Source: an uncultured virus (IMG/VR IMGVR_UViG_3300027770_000035) (taxonomy: Duplodnaviria > Heunggongvirae > Uroviricota > Caudoviricetes). From it: a stretch of 20,000 bases of DNA. The position numbers and the translations under genes were made by a program. Under the pieces are notes generated by a model, which saw only the letters and a list, made by a program, of their open reading frames with translations, was not told where the DNA came from and searched no databases. Positions within the stretch are counted from its first letter, which is position 1, and each line of letters opens with the position of its first letter. Where the stretch lies: the IMG/VR virus record IMGVR_UViG_3300027770_000035. One strand, 5' to 3'. Shown piece after piece: positions 1 to 20,000 of the stretch.

Positions 1-15
1 TTGAGCTATCTGGGA
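1..15 (-). tRNA. 5' end of a third tRNA, truncated by the window edge (identity not readable; a TCC- start is typical of tRNA-Asn)
   Basis: Reverse complement TCCCAGA-TA-GCTCAA gives acceptor 5' strand, U8A9 and D-stem start, 6 nt downstream of the tRNA-Thr CCA. The anticodon is outside the window. Confidence 0.65.
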
Positions 16-21
16 ATATTG

Positions 22-97
22 TGGAGCCTCGTGCCGGGATTGAACCAGCGACATCCAGTTTACAAAACTGGCGCTCTACCAACTGAGCTAACAAGGC
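22..97 (-). tRNA. trnT: tRNA-Thr(UGU), CCA encoded
   Basis: Revcomp GCCTTGT TAGCTCAGTTGGTAGAGCG CCAGT TTTGTAA ACTGG ATGTC GCTGG TTCAATC CCGGC ACGAGGC TCCA: 76-nt cloverleaf, anticodon TGT. Confidence 0.96.
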
Positions 98-98
98 T

Positions 99-175
99 TG
101 GTGATCTGTGAGAGATTCGAACTCCCGACCCTAGAGGTAGAAGCTCCATGCTCTATCCAACTGAGCTAACAGACC
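99..175 (-). tRNA. trnR: tRNA-Arg(UCU), CCA encoded
   Basis: Revcomp GGTCTGT TAGCTCAGTTGGATAGAGCA TGGAG CTTCTAC CTCTA GGGTC GGGAG TTCGAAT CTCTC ACAGATC ACCA: 77-nt cloverleaf, anticodon TCT. Confidence 0.96.
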
Positions 176-180
176 AAACT

Positions 181-188
181 TATTTATA
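181..188 (-). promoter_or_regulatory. T4-type late promoter TATAAATA upstream of the tRNA cluster
   Basis: Exact TATAAATA on the minus strand, 5 nt before the tRNA-Arg 5' end. The same motif precedes gp18, gp22 and gp23 here. Confidence 0.65.
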
Positions 189-530
189 TTAGTCAACGAT
201 ATTCAATCCAATCTGTCTGAGACAACTCTCGATCTCTTTAGTCAACGTTCCTTCTGCGACAAAGCCTCCACTAACACACATGCCAGAACAATACCAATCC
301 ATGTAGTCCTCGTTCAGTATGCCGACCAGACTTCGAATCTCGGCAACAATTCCACCAGAAGATCTCCAGGAATATGAAGCGACGACATCAATATCATCTA
401 CTGTATATTCCATATTGCAGAAGGCAGCATAGAAATTCTGAGCAAATGAATCATCGATGAACCTCCCAAGGAATGAGGAAGACTTCACTCTGTCAATCAG
501 ATCAGTATCATCGAAATATTTCTTTGTCAT
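189..530 (-). CDS. Phage hypothetical protein (113 aa)
   Basis: ATGA overlap with the deaminase stop. Motifs AQNFYAAFCN, SWRSSGGIVAEIR and DYMDWYCSG resemble an uncharacterised phage family I recall; function unknown. Confidence 0.8.
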   Translation of the reverse strand: MTKKYFDDTDLIDRVKSSSFLGRFIDDSFAQNFYAAFCNMEYTVDDIDVVASYSWRSSGGIVAEIRSLVGILNEDYMDWYCSGMCVSGGFVAEGTLTKEIESCLRQIGLNIVD

Positions 531-925
531 AGTGTCTCGTATCCATTATCTACTGTGTAGTATACATTCTTGATTTCAAATTCCGCAATGGCTCGTTGAC
601 AACCATCACAAGGTTTTGAGATTCCCCATACACCTTTATTCTTCACCCTGCAAATATAAAGTGACGACTTCTTTAGTTGCCAGAGATCCAGCTGTCTCAG
701 AGCATTCTTGATGGTTGCTATCTCGGCGTGAAGAAATATTCTGTGTTCAGTGTCAGCATACTTCTTCTGAAATGGTGAAGACTTATAGGATGAAGTTCCG
801 TATGCCACAATCCTATTCTTATATTCCAATGCAGCTGCCAGTTTGTAATTGGCGACCTTTGGAGTGAGAGCAGCAATCTCGGAAAGATCCTGAAGTATTC
901 TCAGGATCTTCTGTTCACTTTGCAT
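527..925 (-). CDS. Zn-dependent cytidine/dCMP-deaminase-fold protein (132 aa)
   Basis: HAE (FLHAEI) and PCxxC (SKPCDGC) motifs. Start reassigned to ATG 925 (MQSEQK); the poly-GL extension in the ORF track is the hexamer repeat read in another frame. Confidence 0.88.
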   Translation of the reverse strand: MQSEQKILRILQDLSEIAALTPKVANYKLAAALEYKNRIVAYGTSSYKSSPFQKKYADTEHRIFLHAEIATIKNALRQLDLWQLKKSSLYICRVKNKGVWGISKPCDGCQRAIAEFEIKNVYYTVDNGYETL

Positions 926-1091
926 AAGACCAAGACCCAGCCCCAGATGCTTGGCCAAACCCATCATAAGACCAAGACCTAGACCAAGACCAATTATCAG
1001 ACCCAGACCCAGACTTAGACCTAGACCTAGACCCAGATAGCCTAGCAGACCTAGACCCCACAATTCGTTTGTATCTTGATTTCTTTGTCAT
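915..1091 (-). CDS. Mini-gene 3, basic Ser/Gly/Trp/Arg peptide (58 aa)
   Basis: MTKKSRYKRIVGSRSARLSGSRSRSKSGSGSDNWSWSRSWSYDGFGQASGAGSWSYAK*. Follows TAA-TAT-ATG and overlaps the deaminase start by 11 nt. Confidence 0.6.
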   Translation of the reverse strand: MTKKSRYKRIVGSRSARLSGSRSRSKSGSGSDNWSWSRSWSYDGFGQASGAGSWSYAK

Positions 1092-1094
1092 ATA

Positions 1095-1238
1095 TTAAGA
1101 CCCAGACCCAGACCCAGACCAAGACCCAGACCCAGACCTAGACCCAGACCCAGACCAAGACCCAGACCAAGACCCAGACCAAGACCCAGACCCAGACCAA
1201 GACCCCACAATTCGTTTGTATCTTGATTTCTTTGTCAT
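1095..1238 (-). CDS. Mini-gene 2, basic head plus 18 perfect X-S dipeptides (47 aa)
   Basis: MTKKSRYKRIV-GSWSGSGSWSGSWSGSWSGSGSRSGSGSWSGSGSGS*, with TAA-TAT-ATG junctions on both sides. Confidence 0.6.
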   Translation of the reverse strand: MTKKSRYKRIVGSWSGSGSWSGSWSGSWSGSGSRSGSGSWSGSGSGS

Positions 1239-1241
1239 ATA

Positions 1242-1439
1242 TTATTTACCAGACCCATACCCAGACCTAGACCAAGACCCAGACCCAGACCTAGACCTAG
1301 ACCTAGACCAAGACCAAGACCCAGACCAAGACCCAGACCTAGACCCAGACCTATACCTAGACCAAGACCTAGACCTAGACCCAGACCCAGACCAAGACCC
1401 AGACCACATAATTCGTTTGTATCTTGATTTCTTTGTCAT
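1242..1439 (-). CDS. Mini-gene 1, basic head plus (W/G/R)-S repeats (65 aa)
   Basis: MTKKSRYKRIMWSGSWSGSGSRSRSWSRYRSGSRSGSWSGSWSWSRSRSRSGSGSWSRSGYGSGK*. Start chosen by identity with the other two heads; the RBS is weak. Confidence 0.6.
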   Translation of the reverse strand: MTKKSRYKRIMWSGSWSGSGSRSRSWSRYRSGSRSGSWSGSWSWSRSRSRSGSGSWSRSGYGSGK

Positions 1440-1540
1440 ATCGATATTGGTGTCAGATCCCCAATTCACGATTCGTTAACTAGACTTTTGTACATCATCT
1501 AGAGGGTGTCTGAACTTACCTGTGAACGACCAATCAGTTC

Positions 1541-1795
1541 CTACTTACCCGGACCGAAGCTTTCGATGGACTGAGTCGTGACAAACCAGGTACCAGTAGG
1601 CAGAGTCTGAGCATCCTTATACCCAGCTTCGGTGAATGCACCAGTCTCATATACAATCTGAGCATCGGCCAGCTTGACATGAGATTTAGTGACCTCGGAG
1701 ACCGTACCAGCATAGATGTAATTCGAGCAGAACAACATCACACTCTTACCCTGGAAAGAATCAAGACCTTCAACAACGTTATTGAGATTTTTCAT
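1541..1795 (-). CDS. Small beta-rich protein, probable Sm/LSm/Hfq-like fold (84 aa)
   Basis: Short helix then GKSVMLF..NYIYAGTVSEV..HVKLADA (Sm1-like) and WFVTTQSIESF (Sm2-like). Purine-rich leader with AAGGA. The ORF is solid; the fold is by-eye inference. Confidence 0.65.
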   Translation of the reverse strand: MKNLNNVVEGLDSFQGKSVMLFCSNYIYAGTVSEVTKSHVKLADAQIVYETGAFTEAGYKDAQTLPTGTWFVTTQSIESFGPGK

Positions 1796-1847
1796 AATTT
1801 ATTTTCCTTTTCCTTTTTACTCCTCTTTTATTATACTACGGAGTCAA

Positions 1848-1985
1848 CTACCAATTTATGAAACTTAAACGTATGCAATCATCATAGTCGTGACGATAGT
1901 CATCCGCTTCATTTTGATTGTACTGTTCGAAGTCATCCGGTTCGTAGAACTCTTCAGCAGAGACATCATCAAAGTCATCGTTCAT
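1848..1985 (-). CDS. Very acidic 45-aa peptide (not in the ORF track), probably leaderless
   Basis: MNDDFDDVSAEEFYEPDDFEQYNQNEADDYRHDYDDCIRLSFINW*. ATG lies 6 nt after a TATACT -10 box. Confidence 0.7.
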   Translation of the reverse strand: MNDDFDDVSAEEFYEPDDFEQYNQNEADDYRHDYDDCIRLSFINW

Positions 1986-1991
1986 ATTCAA

Positions 1992-2020
1992 AGTATACCG
2001 CATCCCTCGGAGGATGTCAA
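1992..2020 (-). promoter_or_regulatory. Sigma70-type early promoter, leftward
   Basis: TTGACA (2020-2015), 17 nt, TATACT (1997-1992). Confidence 0.85.
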
Positions 2021-2043
2021 GAGGAATCTGAAAATAGTTTCTC

Positions 2044-2072
2044 TTGACAATCGAAGATCGACGCCCTATACT
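2044..2072 (+). promoter_or_regulatory. Sigma70-type early promoter, rightward
   Basis: TTGACA (2044-2049), 17 nt, TATACT (2067-2072). Confidence 0.85.
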
Positions 2073-2078
2073 ATAGGT

Positions 2079-2504
2079 ATGAATAAGAAATTCTCACCTG
2101 AACTCCACGATGAGTTCGATGTATTTGGTCGGGAGATCGTGAAGAAGTTCTTGGCCAAGACAATGAAGCTGGAAGCCAGAGACAATCCGGACCAGTATGG
2201 TATTGATCTGGTCCTATATAAGAATGATACAATCGTAGGATATGCCGAGGTTGAGGTTCGGACCAACTGGAATGCTCTGAACTTTCCTTTTGATGAACTG
2301 AATGTTCCACTGAGGAAAGGTAAGCTGTTCAACAACGATCTTCCTTCGCTGTTCTTCTCGGTGAACCAGCCGGGCACGGCATTGATGTACTGTTCGTCTA
2401 ATCTTGTGATGAGATCTCGGATCGAGAATTCTCCCAACAAGTATATGAGAGAAGAAATGTTCTTCAAGGTTCCAGTAGAGAAAATGAAGTTTGTGGTACT
2501 ATAG
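2079..2504 (+). CDS. Hypothetical protein, probable PD-(D/E)xK nuclease-like fold (141 aa)
   Basis: Start reassigned to ATG 2079, just after the promoter. YGIDLVL...YAEVEVR matches the D...E-x-(K/E) strand arrangement of restriction-endonuclease-like folds (inference). Confidence 0.6.
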   Translation: MNKKFSPELHDEFDVFGREIVKKFLAKTMKLEARDNPDQYGIDLVLYKNDTIVGYAEVEVRTNWNALNFPFDELNVPLRKGKLFNNDLPSLFFSVNQPGTALMYCSSNLVMRSRIENSPNKYMREEMFFKVPVEKMKFVVL

Positions 2505-2515
2505 GATAATATATA

Positions 2516-2674
2516 ATGAACCCAAAAACCAGATCACTACTCGAAGAAGCCAAGATGATGTTATATGGAGTGGCCTTGTTGTCCCAGAAGGATGTGCCTG
2601 TCAATCATGTGAATGTTATGAGGATTGTGAACAAGCTTGAGAAGGCGTTGGAAAAAGACGGAGTTGTGACTTAA
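2516..2674 (+). CDS. Small hypothetical protein (52 aa, not in the ORF track)
   Basis: MNPKTRSLLEEAKMMLYGVALLSQKDVPVNHVNVMRIVNKLEKALEKDGVVT*. AGGA upstream, and it ends at the terminator. Confidence 0.65.
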   Translation: MNPKTRSLLEEAKMMLYGVALLSQKDVPVNHVNVMRIVNKLEKALEKDGVVT

Positions 2675-2676
2675 AT

Positions 2677-2713
2677 AAAAAAAGGGAGCCAATGAAGGCT
2701 CCCTTTCTCTTTT
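2677..2713. terminator. Bidirectional intrinsic terminator between the early genes and gp23
   Basis: A7 run, stem GGGAGCC-aatgaa-GGCTCCC, then TTTCTCTTTT, so both strands have T-rich tails. A further minus-strand hairpin (TGCATCC-ttacca-GGGTGCA, 2717-2736) follows the gp23 stop. Confidence 0.9.
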
Positions 2714-2740
2714 ATATGCACCCTGGTAAGGATGCAGTGA

Positions 2741-4036
2741 TTACATGAGGTTGAGGACTTTGATCTTCCGGAAGTAACCATTAGCATTGGCAGTAAGAGC
2801 ACCAGGTGTGGTACCGAAGAAGGGATTACCAACAAGACCGTAACGAGTCTTGAAGCCAATCTTGGGCTGGAAGGTGTTCGGATCGACTGCACGTACCTGC
2901 TGCAACGGTACATACGGACAGAAGAACATACCAGCATCATACGGAGACTTACCCTTGTAACCGACAACCATAAGATCATTGGTTGAAGAGTAGAAGTAGG
3001 GATCAATGAATACCTTGTACTTGCCGTTTAGTGTACCAGCAAATGTGTCGGTGGATTCGTCAACATTGAGATCTGTCTTGAGAGCAGGAGCATAATCAAG
3101 CTTACCTGACATAGCCAGAGCAGAAGCAACGTCTGAAGAAACAACAAGGAAGTTACCAGCACCACGACGAGTGTCCTTGGCAATGAAGTTAGCATCACGT
3201 TCGGCCTGGAACAGAAGACCCTTGAAACGTTCTACTGACCAACGGCCATCAGAATCGGTATCAAGATCGAATACACCAGGTGTGGTGGTATTCTTCTGGG
3301 CACCAACCTTCGCAACGTTATAGATGTTTCCCATAACTTCACGATTGATTTCGAACATGATTTCATTGGAGAGGATGTTGGAGAGTTCAGACTCAGCATC
3401 GAGACCGTGAACTGCCTTCAAATCCTGCGCCATTTCGATTGTGTATTCTGACTTCAGCGCACGAGTCTGGGCTGTGACAGTTACCTTATCGAGTGTGAAA
3501 CCCATTTCGTTCGGAGTCAGACCTTCACCGTTGATTGTGGTCATACCATTACCAAAGGCATAACCAGAGGCAAACGGATCTGTACCAGCAGCAGCAGGAG
3601 AGGTAGCACCAGAGAACGCAGAGTCTACAACGCCTGTGGGAGGAATGTAAAGGGCTTCTGTGGAATTCGGACCCACCTGGCCATTGGTCGCACCACCAGA
3701 GGTTGCGTAGCGTGACTTCATGGCGAAGATCAAACCAGTCGGCATTTGCATCGGTTGAACGCCACAAACTTCATACGCCATTAGCGTAGGCATTGAACGA
3801 CGAACCAAGGCGATGAGAATAGGATCGAAACCACCACCAGTGGCAGCAGTACCTTGCAGAGCAGAGGCATCACCAGTAGGATAGGCTTCCTGGATGATCT
3901 GGCCCTGTTTGATCGCTTCACGTTCCTGATTTTCGAGAAGGATCGCTGTTACCTGCTTGCGATACTTATCGGTGATGGGGGCGAGATCTGCATGATCCAG
4001 AACTCCCTTCCATTTATTTAGTAGATTTGTTGACAT
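2741..4036 (-). CDS. gp23: T4-like major capsid protein
   Basis: LLENQE, GVQPMQMPTGLIFAMKSRY, TRALKSEYTIEMAQDLKAVHGLDAE, FFCPYVPL, FQPKIGFKTRYG. SD AAGGAG. Confidence 0.98.
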   Translation of the reverse strand: MSTNLLNKWKGVLDHADLAPITDKYRKQVTAILLENQEREAIKQGQIIQEAYPTGDASALQGTAATGGGFDPILIALVRRSMPTLMAYEVCGVQPMQMPTGLIFAMKSRYATSGGATNGQVGPNSTEALYIPPTGVVDSAFSGATSPAAAGTDPFASGYAFGNGMTTINGEGLTPNEMGFTLDKVTVTAQTRALKSEYTIEMAQDLKAVHGLDAESELSNILSNEIMFEINREVMGNIYNVAKVGAQKNTTTPGVFDLDTDSDGRWSVERFKGLLFQAERDANFIAKDTRRGAGNFLVVSSDVASALAMSGKLDYAPALKTDLNVDESTDTFAGTLNGKYKVFIDPYFYSSTNDLMVVGYKGKSPYDAGMFFCPYVPLQQVRAVDPNTFQPKIGFKTRYGLVGNPFFGTTPGALTANANGYFRKIKVLNLM

Positions 4037-4083: not shown

Positions 4084-5253
4084 TTAAAACTTGAGGCTGC
4101 GAGAGATGGTATCTACATACTTAGACATGCGAGTATTTTCGTGGAGTAATTCTCCTTGAGGACCAGTTTCAGTCTCCAACTTGGTGTCACTCTTTATCAC
4201 AGTCTTGGTGAATGCATTTTCCTTGATTACCGCAACTTTATTCTTGAAACTCTTCTCATCTTCAAAGGCCACATCTTCAGTTAGTTTCTTGAACTTTTCT
4301 ACTTGTGTTGCTGTCAGTCCCTTGGATGATTCAAGGACTAACATTTCCTTGCGTTGTTTGTTGTACTTAATACGCAACTGAGCATTCTTTTCAATCTGTT
4401 CATTCAGCTTTTGTTCGGCTTCAGTTACTTTGGTTCCTAGTTCAACAACCATGTCACGAGTAGGAATATTTGTGAAATTGTACTGCTCATACATACCCTT
4501 CATATTGGATAGGAATGACTCAGCAATCTGTACCTTGATGCCATTTTCCAGAGCAATCTTATTGTTTTCTGCCCACTCTTCGGCAACATATGTCAGGTAC
4601 TTATCGAGCTTGTTTGTGAAGGCTTCGCTGTAAGCTTCTTCAGGAGCAACCATCGGCATTTCAGAAGGAGCAACTTTAACGAAAGACTTGAGTCTGGCCA
4701 CAGCAGTGGGATCTTTAGCCAAGAACTTTAGAATAGTTGCAAATGCATCCACAAACGGTTTGGCCATTTGATTATTATTTAGATCATTGAAAGTGGCTGT
4801 GAATGCAGGTTTCAACTTTGTGAAAGTCGGTCCCATCAATGCACGGAAGGCTTGCTTAAATTCATTGTCCTTGGCAAGTTCAGGGAAGTCTGCCAGAGCT
4901 AATGAGGCAGGATCACTATCATCTTCCTCATACATTTCATCTTCGGCTTCAGGATCCATTGCTTCGGCTTCCATCTTCTTCTCGCCGTCGTCTTCGGCTT
5001 CAGGATCCATTTCTTCATCTTCGGCTTCAGGATCCATTTCTTTGTCTTTAGGATCCTTTTCGTCGTCTACTGTAGGATCCATTGCTTCGGCTTCCATCTT
5101 CTTCTCGCCGTCGTCTTCGTCGTCTTCATCGTCGTGTGCTTCCATACGAGTTGCAACAACATCTTCGAGCATCGCCGAGATCCGTTTCTTCGCATCTTCC
5201 TTGATGTCGTTACCTTCAAAGATAGCGTCGAAAGATAATTTATTTTTTGCCAT
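4084..5253 (-). CDS. gp22: Prohead core scaffolding protein with a large internal insertion
   Basis: Lies between gp21 and gp23. KLDKYLTYVAEEWAENNKIALENGIK..AESF, GLTATQVEKFKKLTEDV and a MSKYVDTISR C-terminus. Confidence 0.92.
   Translation of the reverse strand: MAKNKLSFDAIFEGNDIKEDAKKRISAMLEDVVATRMEAHDDEDDEDDGEKKMEAEAMDPTVDDEKDPKDKEMDPEAEDEEMDPEAEDDGEKKMEAEAMDPEAEDEMYEEDDSDPASLALADFPELAKDNEFKQAFRALMGPTFTKLKPAFTATFNDLNNNQMAKPFVDAFATILKFLAKDPTAVARLKSFVKVAPSEMPMVAPEEAYSEAFTNKLDKYLTYVAEEWAENNKIALENGIKVQIAESFLSNMKGMYEQYNFTNIPTRDMVVELGTKVTEAEQKLNEQIEKNAQLRIKYNKQRKEMLVLESSKGLTATQVEKFKKLTEDVAFEDEKSFKNKVAVIKENAFTKTVIKSDTKLETETGPQGELLHENTRMSKYVDTISRSLKF
4951..5119. repeat. Intragenic direct repeats in gp22
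   Basis: Exact 46-bp repeat at 4951-4996 and 5074-5119 (DDGEKKMEAEAMDP), plus repeated MDPEAED units. Confidence 0.9.
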
Positions 5254-13268: not shown

Positions 13269-16200
13269 TTAGTTAGACATCATCGTAATCCAATTAGTTC
13301 CATCACTTTGTAACATCGCAAACTTCCCTCCCGACGACCCCCCAAGGAGTATTGCTGTTCCTGCCGTTGCTGACCCCAAAGGTACCACATTACTTGCATT
13401 GCTTGTGAGTGAATTTGCAGTTATATTTTTTACATACAATATTCTCCCGGCATATGTTGCAGCCGACAAAAGAGTTATTGTACAACTGGTAGTGGTAATG
13501 ATTAACGAAGAATCAGTACTCGCCATAGTGTAAGTAGCAGCGTTGACTGTGGTTGGGGATTTAAGTGCAATGCTTCCTTCATGATAAACAGTAGATCCTG
13601 CGATGTATGCGGTATTAGCACCTTTTCCCCCAACCGCTCCTATTACTATTTCGTTACTTACACCTGCTGCCGAAGCATAACTACCAGCACCTATGTAAAC
13701 ATTATAAGTTCCTGTAGCCTGATTTGTTCCAGCATTTTGTCCTATAGCAATATTATTGCCACCAGTTGAGATTGAAGCACCACTATTGTAGCCTAAGGTT
13801 GTGTTATTGGCACCAGTAGTAATTGCAGACCCGGACACATATCCTATAGCAGTATTACCATAACCACTTGTAATGGTGAGTAGTGTCTGTTGTCCAACGG
13901 CAGTATTACCAGCAATGCTTGAAGTGCCTAATCCAACTGTAATACCGTTAATCAGCGCATCCCCAGCCACATGGAGTAATTTGCTGGGACTGGTGGTCCC
14001 GATGCCAACGTTACCGTTGGCTAGAATGGTAGCTCTAATTCCGCCTGGAGTTCCTAATTGCAAAGCGGAACCACTGGAACCTGCTGATATAAAAGTGGCA
14101 TACGCTAACGTATTAGTCAGGGTGGCACCAGCCGTGCTTCCCTCGACTCCAACATATCCCAGCCCGGTATTAGCAGAAGAGTTGAATTGGGTGTATACAG
14201 CACTGGTGTCATTGGTACCAGTGATACGAATCACAGCACCACTCCCAACGATTGCGAGTTTATTGCCTGGCGTTGTCGTCCCGATGCCAACGTTTCCGGT
14301 TGTTGTTTGAATATACAGGGCATCGGTTACTGCACCAGCACCAGTGTGGACTTTGAACTGATGATACTGCCCTGAGTATTCAAATCCCACACGAAAATCA
14401 GTACCAGGCAACCAACCCATAGTTTGATAATTCGTATCGGTTGTGAATCCAGCAGTTACCCGATTGTCAGAACTAGCTCTTCTAACTTCTAATTGCCCAT
14501 AGTTTCCTGTAATTGAACTTGGTAAACCAATAGCCACATTTCCATTAACTGCAAGTTTTGAGGTAGGTGTTGTCGTCCCGATGCCCACGTTGCCGGATGT
14601 GGCTTTAATGGTCAGCTTATCATTGCCAGATGCCCTGAAAAACAGATCACCACCAGCGGCAGTGGAGTCTAAATACAAATTGTCTCCACCATCAACTTGA
14701 AGTACGGTTCTTGCTGTTCCAGCAGCATCTTTGATTTGGATGCCCTGAGTGTTGTCTAAAAGAATCTTACCACCAGCCACATGAAGTTTTGCCGTGGGAG
14801 ATGATATCCCGATGCCAACATTTCCTGTACTGTTAATTCTCACCCGCTCTGTTACTTGTCCCCCCATAATTCTGGTGCCGAAAGCGAGGTAACTAGCATA
14901 ATCGCCATCCGTGGCGTTTTCTTTGGCTCCTTTTATCAGTGCCCACTGGGCTTGCCAGTCCAGGTGATACCGTCCGCCGAATCCTATGGAGCCGCCAACA
15001 TCGATTCCCAATGCAGTATTCGTCTCCACGTTGAGCACGCCAGCATTGTTAGCGCCAGCTCCAAATACGACATTGGGACCTGTCACGGTCATGGTGGAAG
15101 CAGTGAGACTATCTGCCGCTGTATTCACAGTACCACTCAGAACATCCAGCTTCACATTTGGTGCCGTCGTCCCGATGCCGACGTTGCCACTATTCAGTAC
15201 AGAAAACTGTTCTGAAATAATATTAGTGGAAGTTCGTGTACCAAGAGATACACGTACCAATCCACTACCATCTTGATATCCAGTCAATCCCCCGCCACGC
15301 ACGTCCGATCCAAATTCAAGCAGTTCTTTGAGTGACGCACTTGCCACAGGAACAGCAATAGCTGGGGATGTTCTGCCATATGAATTTGCGGCACCAATCT
15401 GTAAACTAGCAGATGGACTGGTGGTCCCAATTCCGACGCAGCCGCTATTTCTATTTATGAATAACCGATCCGCCCAACCACCATTGTTGACCTGGCTTTG
15501 AATAGACAAATCTGTTCCGGCACCATTGTCTGTTGCGTTTTCAGAACCAAGAGCCAGGAACTGCCAGCGATCTTGGATAGTGCCAGTGGCCTGGCCACGG
15601 CGGAACAACAACCTGTTACCACTATTGCCTGATAGACCTTCAGTAGTGAGGGTTGCATATGAACCAGTTGAGCCAGTCGAACGTGCTGCAATAACAGAAG
15701 ATGTGGCATATACATCAAGCAAATACGCAGGTGACGTCGTCCCGATGCCCACGTTGCCGCTATTAGTAATCACCATTCTCTGATTGGCCGAACCATTGGC
15801 ACCAGTTTCAAACTTAATTTCGCCAGCATTGGCATTGAGAATAAGCCCCCCTGAAATATTTGCCTGCGTAGTAAGCACGCCTGCATCTCCCCATCCAGTG
15901 ACGGCTGTGTATCCCGTGCCCGTTACGCCAAATAGTACCCTATCATTAATTCCCAATGCTCCATTTCTCATATCAAATAATGCAGAGGCAGCAGTCCCCG
16001 CATTGGGATTATCAAACCGAATGTCAGTTTGAGTGTTTTGGTCTTTACTTACATGCAACAACGCCCCAGGACTTGTCGTCCCGATGCCCACGTTGCCGTT
16101 ATAGTTTACATAATTTCTTGACAATGCTGTAAGCGTATAAATTGAAGACACTGTCATTGCGTCAAACACTGGTTTTGCTAAACCGGAGTCAGAAAACATT

Positions 16201-17714
16201 CTTACTTTTATGGTGTATTGATTTCCAGTACTTACTATATGCGATATTGGTATTCGGTATACTGAATTTGTAGCATCCCAACTAATATCCCCTATAGCAA
16301 CATTGTCTGGAAGAGTTCCTAAGGCATCAGAAACTCTGGATTCATTCGTATAAATGGCGTTGTTTGGGTTTGTACCAATAGCAAATAATTTTGTTAATTT
16401 TCCATATGAAGGTTGGTTGCTGTAGGTGGAATTGAGTTCTACTTCGATATAACCACCTATAGCTAAATTACCAAGTCTTATGTCTACAGCTTGGTTGGCT
16501 ACAGCATTGGGGAAATTAACTACTGAAGAAAAAACTTTTTCAAAAGTATTAGTTGTATTTAATATTCCGGCAGAAGATCGAATGGTACCTGTAACATCCA
16601 AAGCATAAGCAGGACTTGCCGTCCCGATGCCGACGTTGCCGCTCGTTAGAATAGAGACTAATTCACTCGGTGTATTATTTTGTTTGTTTATAAAGGAAAA
16701 TCTACCGTTTACAGTATTTTCTCTACCTATGTCCCAATAGTAAGTATCGCTATAACCAAGACGAAGTTGTCCATTTGTTGTGCTTGATGTGTCTAGAATG
16801 CTTAACTTATTGCCTGGCGTTATCGTTCCGATGCCCACGTTACCAGCAGCGTCTATTCGCATTCGTTCGGTCAGATTGGCAAACGTGGCTGAACTAGCGG
16901 AACTTGCTGCATTGGTAAAAAATCCCAATCCGCCGCCCCAATCATTACCTGGACCTATCCTGATCCCAGAAACACCCGCAACTAAGGTTGCATTAAGCTG
17001 ATCTTTGAATACGATGCCAATACCACGAGCGATACCACTAGCAGGTCCGCCTGTCCTTTCAAAGATTGCACCGATTTCGTTGATGGTAGCCGAGCTTACG
17101 AGACTTGTGTGTAACGGAGCCAACGGCGATGTCGTCCCGATGCCGACATTGCCACTATTATTTACCATCAGGTAACTTACCCCTGCACTACTTGCCGCAT
17201 TGAAAACTCCACTACCATTTAGCGTGCTGTTGCCGTAAATATTTAATGAATATCCTGTTGAACCTGTCCCAATACTCACAGGATTGCCATTCACTTGCAA
17301 TGTCATAGCTCTTGAAGTACCGGACCCTAAATCAAAACCATCAAGCCCTGAATTGATAAGTCTGACCCCAAAATTGGTGGCTGTATCTCCAATCCAAAAC
17401 TGTCTATTACCAGAAGCGTTATAGCTCAGATTGATCCCAGCCCCATTAGTGGCGTCGCTGCCCCCCAGAACACCTGCGCCAGTCAATCGTAAGCCATAAC
17501 CTGTTGTGGTTTGGACGTGCAGCGGCGTTGAGGGCGTTGTCGTCCCGATGCCAACTCTATTATTAGTAGTATCCACATTCAATACAACTGTACCTGCCGA
17601 ATTCTGAATCTGCACAACTGTGGTACTATCATTGCTGGCAGCAGGTTTGATGAGTAATTGTTGATGTAGAGATGATAGAGATATATCGGTATCTGTTACT
17701 AGAGTCTTAGCCAT
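13269..17714 (-). CDS. Long modular tail fibre or adhesin (~1481 aa)
   Basis: Twelve VGIG[T/I]xxP (GNVGIGTTSP-type) repeats, ~14-aa NTA(I/V)G beta-roll repeats near the C-terminus and a terminal DGTNW domain. Start moved to ATG 17714 (SD GGAGG, after the upstream stop). Confidence 0.88.
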   Translation of the reverse strand: MAKTLVTDTDISLSSLHQQLLIKPAASNDSTTVVQIQNSAGTVVLNVDTTNNRVGIGTTTPSTPLHVQTTTGYGLRLTGAGVLGGSDATNGAGINLSYNASGNRQFWIGDTATNFGVRLINSGLDGFDLGSGTSRAMTLQVNGNPVSIGTGSTGYSLNIYGNSTLNGSGVFNAASSAGVSYLMVNNSGNVGIGTTSPLAPLHTSLVSSATINEIGAIFERTGGPASGIARGIGIVFKDQLNATLVAGVSGIRIGPGNDWGGGLGFFTNAASSASSATFANLTERMRIDAAGNVGIGTITPGNKLSILDTSSTTNGQLRLGYSDTYYWDIGRENTVNGRFSFINKQNNTPSELVSILTSGNVGIGTASPAYALDVTGTIRSSAGILNTTNTFEKVFSSVVNFPNAVANQAVDIRLGNLAIGGYIEVELNSTYSNQPSYGKLTKLFAIGTNPNNAIYTNESRVSDALGTLPDNVAIGDISWDATNSVYRIPISHIVSTGNQYTIKVRMFSDSGLAKPVFDAMTVSSIYTLTALSRNYVNYNGNVGIGTTSPGALLHVSKDQNTQTDIRFDNPNAGTAASALFDMRNGALGINDRVLFGVTGTGYTAVTGWGDAGVLTTQANISGGLILNANAGEIKFETGANGSANQRMVITNSGNVGIGTTSPAYLLDVYATSSVIAARSTGSTGSYATLTTEGLSGNSGNRLLFRRGQATGTIQDRWQFLALGSENATDNGAGTDLSIQSQVNNGGWADRLFINRNSGCVGIGTTSPSASLQIGAANSYGRTSPAIAVPVASASLKELLEFGSDVRGGGLTGYQDGSGLVRVSLGTRTSTNIISEQFSVLNSGNVGIGTTAPNVKLDVLSGTVNTAADSLTASTMTVTGPNVVFGAGANNAGVLNVETNTALGIDVGGSIGFGGRYHLDWQAQWALIKGAKENATDGDYASYLAFGTRIMGGQVTERVRINSTGNVGIGISSPTAKLHVAGGKILLDNTQGIQIKDAAGTARTVLQVDGGDNLYLDSTAAGGDLFFRASGNDKLTIKATSGNVGIGTTTPTSKLAVNGNVAIGLPSSITGNYGQLEVRRASSDNRVTAGFTTDTNYQTMGWLPGTDFRVGFEYSGQYHQFKVHTGAGAVTDALYIQTTTGNVGIGTTTPGNKLAIVGSGAVIRITGTNDTSAVYTQFNSSANTGLGYVGVEGSTAGATLTNTLAYATFISAGSSGSALQLGTPGGIRATILANGNVGIGTTSPSKLLHVAGDALINGITVGLGTSSIAGNTAVGQQTLLTITSGYGNTAIGYVSGSAITTGANNTTLGYNSGASISTGGNNIAIGQNAGTNQATGTYNVYIGAGSYASAAGVSNEIVIGAVGGKGANTAYIAGSTVYHEGSIALKSPTTVNAATYTMASTDSSLIITTTSCTITLLSAATYAGRILYVKNITANSLTSNASNVVPLGSATAGTAILLGGSSGGKFAMLQSDGTNWITMMSN

Positions 17715-17722
17715 AAGAATAT

Positions 17723-20000
17723 TTATCCTCCCAGACTCCAATTACCTGTGGCTCCAGTATTGAATACTAATTTAATGACCCAGTAAGGAGTATCGACTGT
17801 CATAAATGTTGTTGAACCCATAATTCTGTTCGCATTACCATTCACAACAAATCCTGATAGGGGTCCAGTAGAACCATTGGCAAATACTACATAACTATTT
17901 GATGTAGGAGCCAATGGCATAGTGGCAGTAATATTCGTGGCTCCAATCCAATAATTTGAATTTGCTGTTGCAGTAAAGTTGGATGTCTGATAGTTATAGG
18001 TTCCAACAGCACTAGGTCCGGTGGCTCCGGTGAATCCAGAGGCACCAGTCGCTCCAATAGGACCAGTCGTTCCCTGCAACCCTGATGCACCAGTTGCACC
18101 AATGGGACCAGTTGCTCCAGTAAACCCAGAAGCACCAGTCGCACCAATAGGACCAGTGGTTCCCTGCAACCCTGATGCACCAGTCGCACCAATAGGACCA
18201 GTGGTTCCCTGAAGACCAGAGGCTCCTGTGGAACCAATAGGGCCTGTGGTTCCAGTTAGACCAGAGGTACCAGTCGCACCCTGACCAGTCGCACCTATTG
18301 GTCCTGTGGAGCCAACAAATCCTATGTATCCTGAAGTGTATTCGACTTCGAATAACACCAAATCCCCAACAGTCAATCCAGAAGTAAATGTTACTGTGGT
18401 GGAGTTAGTCTCGGTATAGGCAGCAGAGTATTGACGTACACCATTGATATAAACAGAAAGAGTATTTGTTCCTGTGGTATATGAGAATGTAGTAAGAGTA
18501 AATACAGTCTGACTGGCTGTGGCAGTAAATTGTTGTCTTGATACTGATGTATATGCAGTCGGTCCTGTGGCTCCGGTGAATCCTGTGGCACCAGTGGCTC
18601 CATTAGGACCAGTTGTTCCTCGAAGACCAGATGCTCCTGTGGCACCAATGGGACCAGTTGTTCCCTGCAAACCAGAGGCACCAGTCGCACCCTGACCTGT
18701 GGATCCAGTGAATCCAGAAGCACCAGTCGCACCAATAGGACCAGTGGTTCCCTGCAACCCTGATGCACCAGTCGCACCAATGGGACCTGTGGATCCAGTG
18801 AACCCTGATGCTCCTGTGGCACCAATAGGACCAGTGGTTCCCTGCAACCCTGATGCACCAGTCGCACCAATGGGACCTGTGGATCCAGTGAACCCTGATG
18901 CTCCTGTGGCACCAATAGGACCAGTGGTTCCCTGCAACCCTGATGCACCAGTCGCACCAATAGGACCAGTGGTTCCCTGAAGACCAGAGGCTCCTGTGGC
19001 TCCATTAGGACCAGTTGTTCCTCGAAGACCAGATGCTCCTGTGGCACCAATGGGACCAGTTGTTCCCTGAAGACCAGAGGCTCCTGTGGCACCAATAGGA
19101 CCTGTGGTTCCCTGCAATCCTGATGCACCTGTCGCACCAATGGGACCAGTTGTGCCTTGAAGACCAGATGCCCCTGTGGCTCCGATGGGACCAGTGGTTC
19201 CCTGCAACCCTGATGCACCTGTCGCACCAATAGGACCTGTGGTTCCCTGCAAACCAGAGGCACCAGTTGCACCCTGACCTGTGGCTCCGGTGAATCCAGA
19301 GGCACCAGTGGCTCCATTGAATCCAGTTGTGCCTCGAAGACCAGAGGCTCCTGTGGCCCCAATAAATCCAATCAATCCAGTAGAACCAGCAGCACCAACA
19401 ACACTGTTTGCTAACAGCCAATCAGTAGTTGATGCTCTATATACAAGAGTAATATTAAATATACTAGTATCCAGAGCAAGACTGCCAGATTGCATAATAG
19501 TCTGACTAGCATAAGGATTAACCACACAACCAGAAATACCAGTAGACCCTGATACCAGAGTTACAAAGTTGTTATCAGCAGGTGTTGCTGGTAACGTGAC
19601 TGTACTGTTATTGTTGATTAACCAATAATTAGAGTTGAGTTGTGCTGTAAATGCACCACCTGTGGCTCCATAGATAGCAATAGATGCATAGGGACCAGTA
19701 GCACCAGAGGCACCAGTGAACCCTGATGCTCCTGTGGCACCAATAGGACCAGTGGTTCCCTGCAAACCAGAGGCACCAGTCGCACCCTGACCTGTGGATC
19801 CAGTGAATCCAGAAGCACCAGTCGCACCAATAGGACCAGTGGTTCCCTGCAACCCTGATGCACCTGTCGCACCCTGACCTGTGGCTCCAGTGAACCCTGA
19901 TGCTCCTGTGGCACCAATGGGACCAGTGGTTCCCTGCAACCCTGATGCACCAGTCGCACCAATAGGACCAGTGGTTCCCTGAAGACCAGAGGCTCCTGTG
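17723..20000 (-). CDS. Collagen-like fibre protein, 5' end beyond the window
   Basis: G-X-Y triplets ([15 protein letters not shown])n interrupted by three globular domains. The frame stays open past 19939 to the window edge. Confidence 0.9.
18021..20000. repeat. Degenerate 45-bp tandem repeats encoding the collagen-like tracts
   Basis: Three tracts (~18021-18310, ~18560-19390, ~19690-20000) of GCACCAATAGGACCAGTGGTTCCCTGCAACCCTGATGCACCAGTC variants. Confidence 0.93.

Follow-up and report, generated by a model that had tools for sequence, protein, structure and literature searches.

A predicted Sm-like barrel gene is recurrently paired with serine-repeat peptide genes in phage genomes

Eukaryotic Sm proteins and Hfq carry a basic low-complexity tail in cis; SmD1, SmD3, and LSm4 have Arg-Gly tails, and SR proteins have Arg-Ser (RS) domains. 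The loop-3 Asn of the Sm1 motif is part of the uridine pocket, and an Arg-Gly motif marks Sm2. Sm1 contains many RNA-binding residues and Sm2 serves oligomerization (10.1101/140376). GoF and MotB.1, together with Frd.2, of T4-like phages are described in PMC12152347 as early LSm-like proteins that are non-essential in the laboratory, and a cyanophage-type Sm-like pentamer is mentioned in PMC12152347 and 10.1101/140376. Here, we describe a locus in a 20,000-nucleotide (nt) stretch of DNA (hereafter, the window) from the uncultured virus IMGVR_UViG_3300027770_000035, in which a gene for a predicted 84-amino-acid (aa) barrel protein is followed by genes for small peptides whose serines alternate with Gly, Trp, or Arg (X-Ser tracts). 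The locus sits in a small-gene region adjoining two tRNA genes, with every element described on the minus strand, and an earlier note, made from the sequence alone, had read it as an early operon joining an Sm-like protein and these peptides to a deaminase. Its anatomy is very probably that of a two-gene module of barrel and peptide, the peptide gene being tripled in the window and the deaminase being incidental.

The barrel protein (1541..1795) belongs to no Pfam, PHROGs, or NCBIfam family, and the same holds for the peptides and for the two hypothetical open reading frames (ORFs) of the locus. Its AlphaFold2 model, based on an alignment of 141 sequences, has a predicted local distance difference test score (pLDDT) of 92.7 and consists of a short N-terminal helix and a five-stranded barrel. 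In VIA-align comparisons, archaeal SmAP1 ranks first (Z 9.8, root mean square deviation 2.1, 71 residues) and Hfq chains rank lower (Z ≤7.1), and the Foldseek rows listed are Sm/LSm chains or entries containing them, the best at an E value of 0.002 and none at ≤0.001. The Sm fold proposed in the earlier note is well predicted by these three approaches. Neither the barrel sequence nor its profile had a significant match among solved structures, the Pfam LSM family (PF01423) matched one of the 141 family members (E 0.025) and not the window barrel itself, and an Atlas search returned unnamed viral clusters, the closest named LSM standing at 0.84, which is a lead only. The family profile retrieves 522 representatives at E ≤0.001 (50%-identity clusters) and 188 viral stretches. 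Three members (P0029, P0030, and P0065) carry two tandem barrel domains in one protein.

The RNA-binding signature of Sm proteins is not evident in this family. In a weak alignment of one member (P0143) to LSm6 (E 0.6), transferred to the window barrel, the Sm1 Asn is not kept and the loop is one residue shorter. Across the family, the column aligned with this Asn is not conserved, its most frequent residue being Cys (27%), and no Arg-Gly is conserved between the last two strands, where the register was taken from secondary structure alone. The family is net acidic in 126 of 141 members, and its conserved residues are Tyr26, Tyr28, Tyr49, Glu50, Thr51, Gly52, Asp61, Gln63, and Glu78. An acidic barrel without the Sm1 Asn argues against an Hfq-like RNA chaperone acting alone. 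A related explanation, which keeps the ribonucleoprotein or condensate model of the earlier note minus its deaminase, holds that the barrel is itself an Hfq/LSm-type RNA chaperone and the peptide a condensate-driving accessory. This explanation would fit the early-promoter context and the best structural matches, which are RNA-binding Sm/LSm rings, and in T4, mutation of an early LSm-like protein is reported to stabilize an mRNA (PMC12152347). Nevertheless, the net acidity of the family, the apparent lack of a conserved Arg-Gly before the last strand, and the loss of the Sm1 Asn in the sole alignment to a true Sm protein make it distinctly unlikely.

Barrel and peptide genes are linked across phages, whichever of the two is used to select loci. 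The best 80 of the 188 viral stretches, which include the close relatives L004 and L005 of the phage in the window, yielded 67 distinct barrel proteins, of which 9 with <250 nt of downstream sequence were dropped. An X-Ser tract begins within 250 nt downstream of the barrel gene in 52 of the remaining 58 distinct loci (the tract of L055 being divergent); in the other six, the tract lies upstream (three loci) or about 680 nt downstream (one locus), or a leader with a stub is present (two loci). Starting from the tract, 78 loci were chosen by two DNA patterns, 73 of them with at least 600 nt upstream and 63 distinct, and a barrel was found in 50 of the 63 by the family profile and in 56 when a second barrel subfamily was included. 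As a background, the tract occurs in only 3 of 49 distinct loci selected by the deaminase (from the best 80 of 449 viral stretches). Barrel homologs are tightly linked to X-Ser mini-ORFs, a check that the earlier note had proposed. The first peptide gene overlaps the barrel stop codon by 4 nt in 19 of 56 loci and by 1 nt in 4 of 56, and an unrelated 34-kb phage record has an unannotated barrel gene followed by two X-Ser peptides.

In the window, a 101-nt spacer (1440..1540), which is conserved in L005, separates the barrel gene from the peptide genes; a structured RNA in this spacer was considered and rejected, as its folding is not unusual (z 0.86). The first predicted peptide (1242..1439, 65 aa, charge +15) has the leader MTKKSRYKRI followed by (Gly/Trp/Arg-Ser)n; the second (1095..1238, 47 aa, +6) has the same leader and mostly Gly-Ser/Trp-Ser units; and the third (915..1091, 58 aa, +10) has the same leader and a more degenerate tract. 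Peptide 1 alone is likely disordered, with a predicted pLDDT of 49 and no stable structure. Across loci, the peptides have a median length of 66 residues, a median charge of +11, and about 39% Ser and 15% Gly, and they consist of a short Lys/Arg-rich leader and 20 to 35 (Gly/Trp/Arg-Ser) units. Nine times in ten, X is Gly, Trp, or Arg, and NGG accounts for 1491 of 1656 X codons, the window tracts being built of NGG-TCT hexamers. For serine, 42 of 52 loci use TCN and 10 use AGY, with no mixed locus and one codon almost throughout each locus. Because no single synonymous change connects the TCN and AGY sets, the peptide is a selected product. In addition, 40 of 56 loci have a start codon close to the barrel stop that leads into the X-Ser frame, compared with 1 and 2 for the other frames. 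Two other readings, the (Gly-Leu)n frame and that of the opposite strand, were considered and rejected. The tract, a microsatellite of hexanucleotide units, is selected for serine, and its NGG bias can be read as slippage plus first-position change around the sole Trp codon, with a nucleotide-level constraint as a possible alternative.

The same bias could be taken to mean that the repeat acts at the RNA or translation level, as a ring ligand with GG every 6 nt, as a hairpin, or by sensing the supply of tRNA, with the peptide as a by-product. NGG codons prevail in the tracts even though GGG and AGG are rare in the structural genes of the window phage (4% of Gly codons and 7% of Arg codons, respectively), and the RNA of the window array folds well (z −4.3). 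However, codon classes differ in folding (−0.34 to −0.39 kcal/nt in TCT and TCG loci versus −0.09 in AGT loci), so that it is not conserved among them, five serine codons from two disjoint families are used, and the basic leader is kept in frame, and this explanation is very improbable.

The three peptide genes begin with a direct repeat of about 32 nt that encodes the MTKKSRYKRI leader, and its first 14 nt reappear at the start of a 113-aa ORF farther along the locus. The relative L004 has one peptide gene ahead of the deaminase gene, and L005 has one ahead of and two behind it. Contigs from four lake-water metatranscriptome RNA libraries contain the region, one of them identical to the window, and such contigs alone do not show transcription; positions 2101 to 2380 are uncovered in all four runs, a hint, but no proof, against plain DNA carry-over. 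The contigs from two of these runs skip positions 1061 to 1410 at the 32-nt leader repeat, and the contig of a third places a peptide gene behind the deaminase at the shared 14-nt word. The leader repeat is thus where peptide copy number and position vary from strain to strain. One barrel and six peptide-profile matches are present in each of two large phage records (49% and 69% complete), and in one of the two a second peptide array, which keeps this leader, lies at a distance of 26 kb. In L176 (1051-1873), a second peptide array lies far from the barrel gene, together with two further degenerate Ser-rich ORFs and upstream of a gene that reads as UvsX/RecA-like. In L014 and L030, the leader is retained just past the barrel stop and the tract is down to one or four units, by natural loss or assembly collapse.

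Within genomes, the peptides show a constant leader, a variable core, and several copies, the layout of a precursor array for ribosomally synthesized and post-translationally modified peptides. It is quite improbable, even so, that they are precursors of this kind, whose leader the barrel would recognize and whose serines an enzyme of the phage or host would modify. The strict serine periodicity would suit such a role, but the leader diverges fast between genomes, and no third gene, such as a modifying enzyme, protease, or exporter, recurs in six gene maps, in which neighbors were not systematically annotated.

The best clue to the mechanism is given by a sibling system. DUF6948 (PF22253) entries appear among the viral fold matches of the barrel; none of the 141 barrel family members matches PF22253 at E ≤0.05, and the likeness between the two profiles is distant, extending over strands one to three with a probability of 58.6% and an E value of 9.5e-5. 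A Gly-Tyr/Asp/Ser repeat pattern was used to pick 80 Gly-X loci, and a DUF6948-like gene is found in 62 of the 69 with at least 650 nt upstream. DUF6948 barrels are net basic in 27 of 38 cases, with invariant Arg8 and Arg34 and conserved Arg/Lys, and their Gly-X tracts have a median charge of −9. The two systems are thus mirrored in charge, with acidic barrels standing beside basic Ser-peptides and basic DUF6948 barrels beside acidic Gly-peptides. Swapped pairs were not seen, as DUF6948 occurs in none of the 63 X-Ser loci. In L213 (194-1265, minus strand), a DUF6948 gene with its Gly-X peptide is directly followed by a second-subfamily barrel with X-Ser peptides, each tandem barrel being coupled to its own peptide type. 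This second subfamily (RTVTM...WIADTGR...IDA) has no Pfam family and shares homology with the first one, at a probability of 95% and an E value of 3e-8. It is present in 33 of the 78 tract-selected loci (L330, L331, L345, L348, L356, L368, and others), where it is coupled to X-Ser peptides; several of these peptides have a hydrophobic leader, and some second-subfamily barrels share an N-terminal extension with DUF6948 proteins. A search of 300 gammaproteobacterial genomes gave no DUF6948 match and was uninformative, since the control was silent too.

We favor, with a probability of roughly 45%, the reading that the barrel is the cognate binding partner or scaffold that organizes the basic peptide, and no RNA chaperone by itself, and that the two as a complex target nucleic acid or self-assemble in early infection. 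The barrel would oligomerize as other Sm proteins do, and its conserved acidic and aromatic surface would bind the Arg/Lys/Trp-rich peptide, so that the barrel would serve as a chaperone or scaffold and the peptide would provide in trans a basic low-complexity tail. The complex would then bind nucleic acid or self-assemble early, favoring phage over host. The DUF6948 and (Gly-X)n pair would be a charge-inverted version of the same arrangement, and both pairs could share a (Gly-Ser)n ancestor. A broader proposal, possible though doubtful, is that these pairs form an undescribed superfamily built on an Sm ring that has exchanged RNA for a fast-varying, microsatellite-encoded dipeptide-repeat peptide as its ligand, in two charge-inverted versions that nucleate an early condensate or fiber, as the equivalent in prokaryotic viruses of the Sm tails and RS domains of eukaryotes. 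A prediction of four barrels with peptide 1 scored 0.02 against a mark of 0.32 with its controls not folded, and it counts neither for nor against the pairing.

Several observations weigh against the favored reading. No barrel lies within 1.2 kb in 7 of the 63 tract-selected loci, and barrel-peptide fusions were seen in none of 178 fetched proteins and in none of nine longer matches, the latter being a weak search. In L007 (2739-2770, z −3.5), L010 (2740-2770, z −2.8), and L015 (2789-2812, z −2.1), the barrel stop is followed by a U-tailed, terminator-like hairpin ahead of the first peptide, and none is present in the window; these hairpins do not fit a fixed 1:1 production of the two proteins. 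Acidity is no more than mild in the second subfamily (25 of 33 negative and 5 positive), the charge contrast spans only two or three protein families and so offers few independent tests, and the pattern used for the Gly-X loci required Asp. The restriction to Gly, Trp, and Arg may be due in part to mutation paths around NGG instead of side-chain selection, and the leader, constant within a genome, is poorly conserved across the family.

Some of the same features could also be explained by a toxic effector and its antidote. Arg/Trp-rich cationic peptides are often antibacterial, and the X-Ser peptide might be active on membranes or nucleic acid, with the barrel as its immunity protein or chaperone, in host shutoff or phage exclusion. 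The barrel gene comes first and is coupled to the peptide gene, the two products are oppositely charged, cognate pairs stand in tandem in L213, and the hairpins ahead of the peptide in L007, L010, and L015 would keep the barrel in excess. However, the acidic Gly-X peptides of the sibling system have the same layout and would hardly act as membrane toxins, a single barrel gene is accompanied by as many as six peptide matches, and the Ser- and Gly-rich composition differs from that of typical amphipathic toxins. We regard the toxin explanation as unlikely and retain the barrel as a scaffold or partner of the peptide as the favored reading.

The remaining genes of the locus are not conserved members of the unit. 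The gene order and tight junctions described in the earlier note are all present: TAATATATG occurs twice, the third peptide gene overlaps the start of the deaminase gene by 11 nt (915-925), and the deaminase and 113-aa genes are joined by ATGA (530-527). The 132-aa product of the deaminase gene (527..925) has HAE and PCxxC motifs and scores 37.3 bits against a cutoff of 25 for PF00383, and its identification as a zinc-dependent deaminase stands; it belongs to a true zinc deaminase fold family (PF00383; phrog_174), in a common stand-alone phage subfamily. That it works together with the barrel and peptides, in RNA editing or counter-defense, is extremely improbable. Although it is coupled in the window and 6 of 67 distinct barrel loci have a deaminase of this family within 2.5 kb, spread over about three parts of a barrel tree that is poorly resolved (3 of 64 branches have good support, by a quick method), a barrel lies within 3 kb of only 2 of the 49 distinct deaminases, one of them in a close relative of the window phage. 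Moreover, no deaminase lies within 1.2 kb in the 63 tract-selected loci, it is absent from both near-complete barrel-bearing genomes tested, unrelated genes separate it from the barrel in L034, L051, L064, and L070, and two L005 peptides lie behind it. Proximity in 6 of 67 loci, with unrelated genes between in four, fits a shared residence in early small-gene islands. The deaminase, and with it the RNA-editing version of the earlier proposal, which finds little support, should in practice be dropped from the model.

The other genes had likewise been counted as parts of the operon and fare no better. The acidic 45-aa ORF (1848..1985, charge −14) is a local neighbor, matched by tblastn over loci L003 to L086 only in L004 and L005; the hypothetical 113-aa ORF (189..530) is found elsewhere in L005 and L015/L016 and had no usable match in an Atlas search; and the tRNA-Arg(TCT) (99..175) and tRNA-Thr(TGT) (22..97) genes are the only elements passing an Rfam scan. 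A promoter-like site, TTGACA-17-TATACT (1992..2020, sigma70-type early, 11 of 12 matches), precedes the acidic ORF and has the same sequence in the relative L002. The ATG at 1985 follows 7 nt past this site, which suggests a leaderless-type layout. The site itself, given in the earlier note as the one promoter of the operon, is confirmed, and its being the sole promoter is uncertain, because a perfect −10 hexamer, TATAAT (1830..1835), lies ahead of the barrel gene and L002 has a complete TTGACT-18-TATAAT at this point. In the window, the −35 element is degenerate and the hexamer is absent from the promoter-scan output; a second promoter ahead of the barrel gene is possible. The apparent absence of a terminator is borne out, as none of the three terminator-like sites found in a scan of positions 1 to 4000 is on the minus strand.

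Beyond the locus, the window is a section of a T4-like phage genome, with the major head protein at 2741-4036 (phrog_138, E 1e-139), followed by genes that read as head, tail, and terminase-like. On the plus strand (2044-2504), a divergent promoter-like TTGACA-17-TATACT, with an ATG 7 nt beyond at 2079, leads to a 141-aa PD-(D/E)xK-like protein (PF24579, E 0.005, under the cutoff), and both early promoters look leaderless. A prohead-core-like protein (4084-5253, minus strand) has an internal acidic repeat of MDPEAEDEE-type units. Long tail-fiber-like ORFs occupy 13269-20000 (minus strand), one with repeated GNVGIGTTSP units and another with many GATGASG collagen-like repeats that extends past the window end.

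The barrel matched 1 of 50,697 GenBank phage records, a metagenomic record in which the barrel gene is unannotated. With a single GenBank match despite 522 clusters and 188 viral stretches, the pair has escaped bench work. Three contigs of metagenome-assembled genomes match the barrel (Phycisphaerales, Gammaproteobacteria, and Actinomycetes) and may be mis-binned phage DNA. L084, a contig of this kind labeled Phycisphaerales, is near-identical to the viral loci L010 to L012 and is either a possible hint of the host or a mis-binned phage contig.

The Sm fold is known, and the kind of system formed by the barrel and the repeat peptide is not described in the literature found. The earlier note knew of no characterized system with this layout, and the literature searched, in which subscription journals are poorly covered, likewise held no description of the barrel-peptide pair, nor of the DUF6948 and Gly-X pair. 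The barrel shares the predicted N-terminal helix and five-stranded bent barrel with archaeal and eukaryotic Sm/LSm proteins (SmAP1 1loj, AF-Sm2 1ljo, LSm5, and SmF) and differs from them in being about 15 to 20% identical and net acidic, in not conserving the Sm1 Asn and apparently the Sm2 Arg-Gly, and in having a longer loop 4 with a VYETG...KDAQ motif and a separate repeat-peptide partner gene. GoF and MotB.1, along with Frd.2, compared here by description, are likewise early T4-like-phage proteins with a predicted LSm-like barrel; however, they have two domains and come closest to SH3 folds of the FeoA type, and the available text of PMC12152347 mentions no repeat-peptide partner. The window deaminase shares HAE and PCxxC with PF00383/phrog_174 deaminases, which are not tied to the barrel. 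The DUF6948 barrels with (Gly-Tyr/Asp/Ser)n genes have the same two-gene, hexamer-repeat layout, whereas the charge is opposite in both barrel and peptide, and the fixed residue is Gly there and Ser here. Barrel and peptide each have fewer than 100 residues and are thus cheap to test. If the barrel binds the peptide, phages would employ Sm rings together with low-complexity peptides that are programmable, in a manner so far associated with eukaryotic RNA granules. The likeness to the tails of SmD1, SmD3, and LSm4 and to RS domains lies in the combination of an Sm domain with a basic dipeptide tract, including Arg-Ser runs. In phages, however, the tract is encoded by a separate gene and is Trp/Gly-rich, and the window peptides (47 to 65 aa, no Pfam match) lack the RNA recognition motif that is joined to the RS domain in SR proteins.

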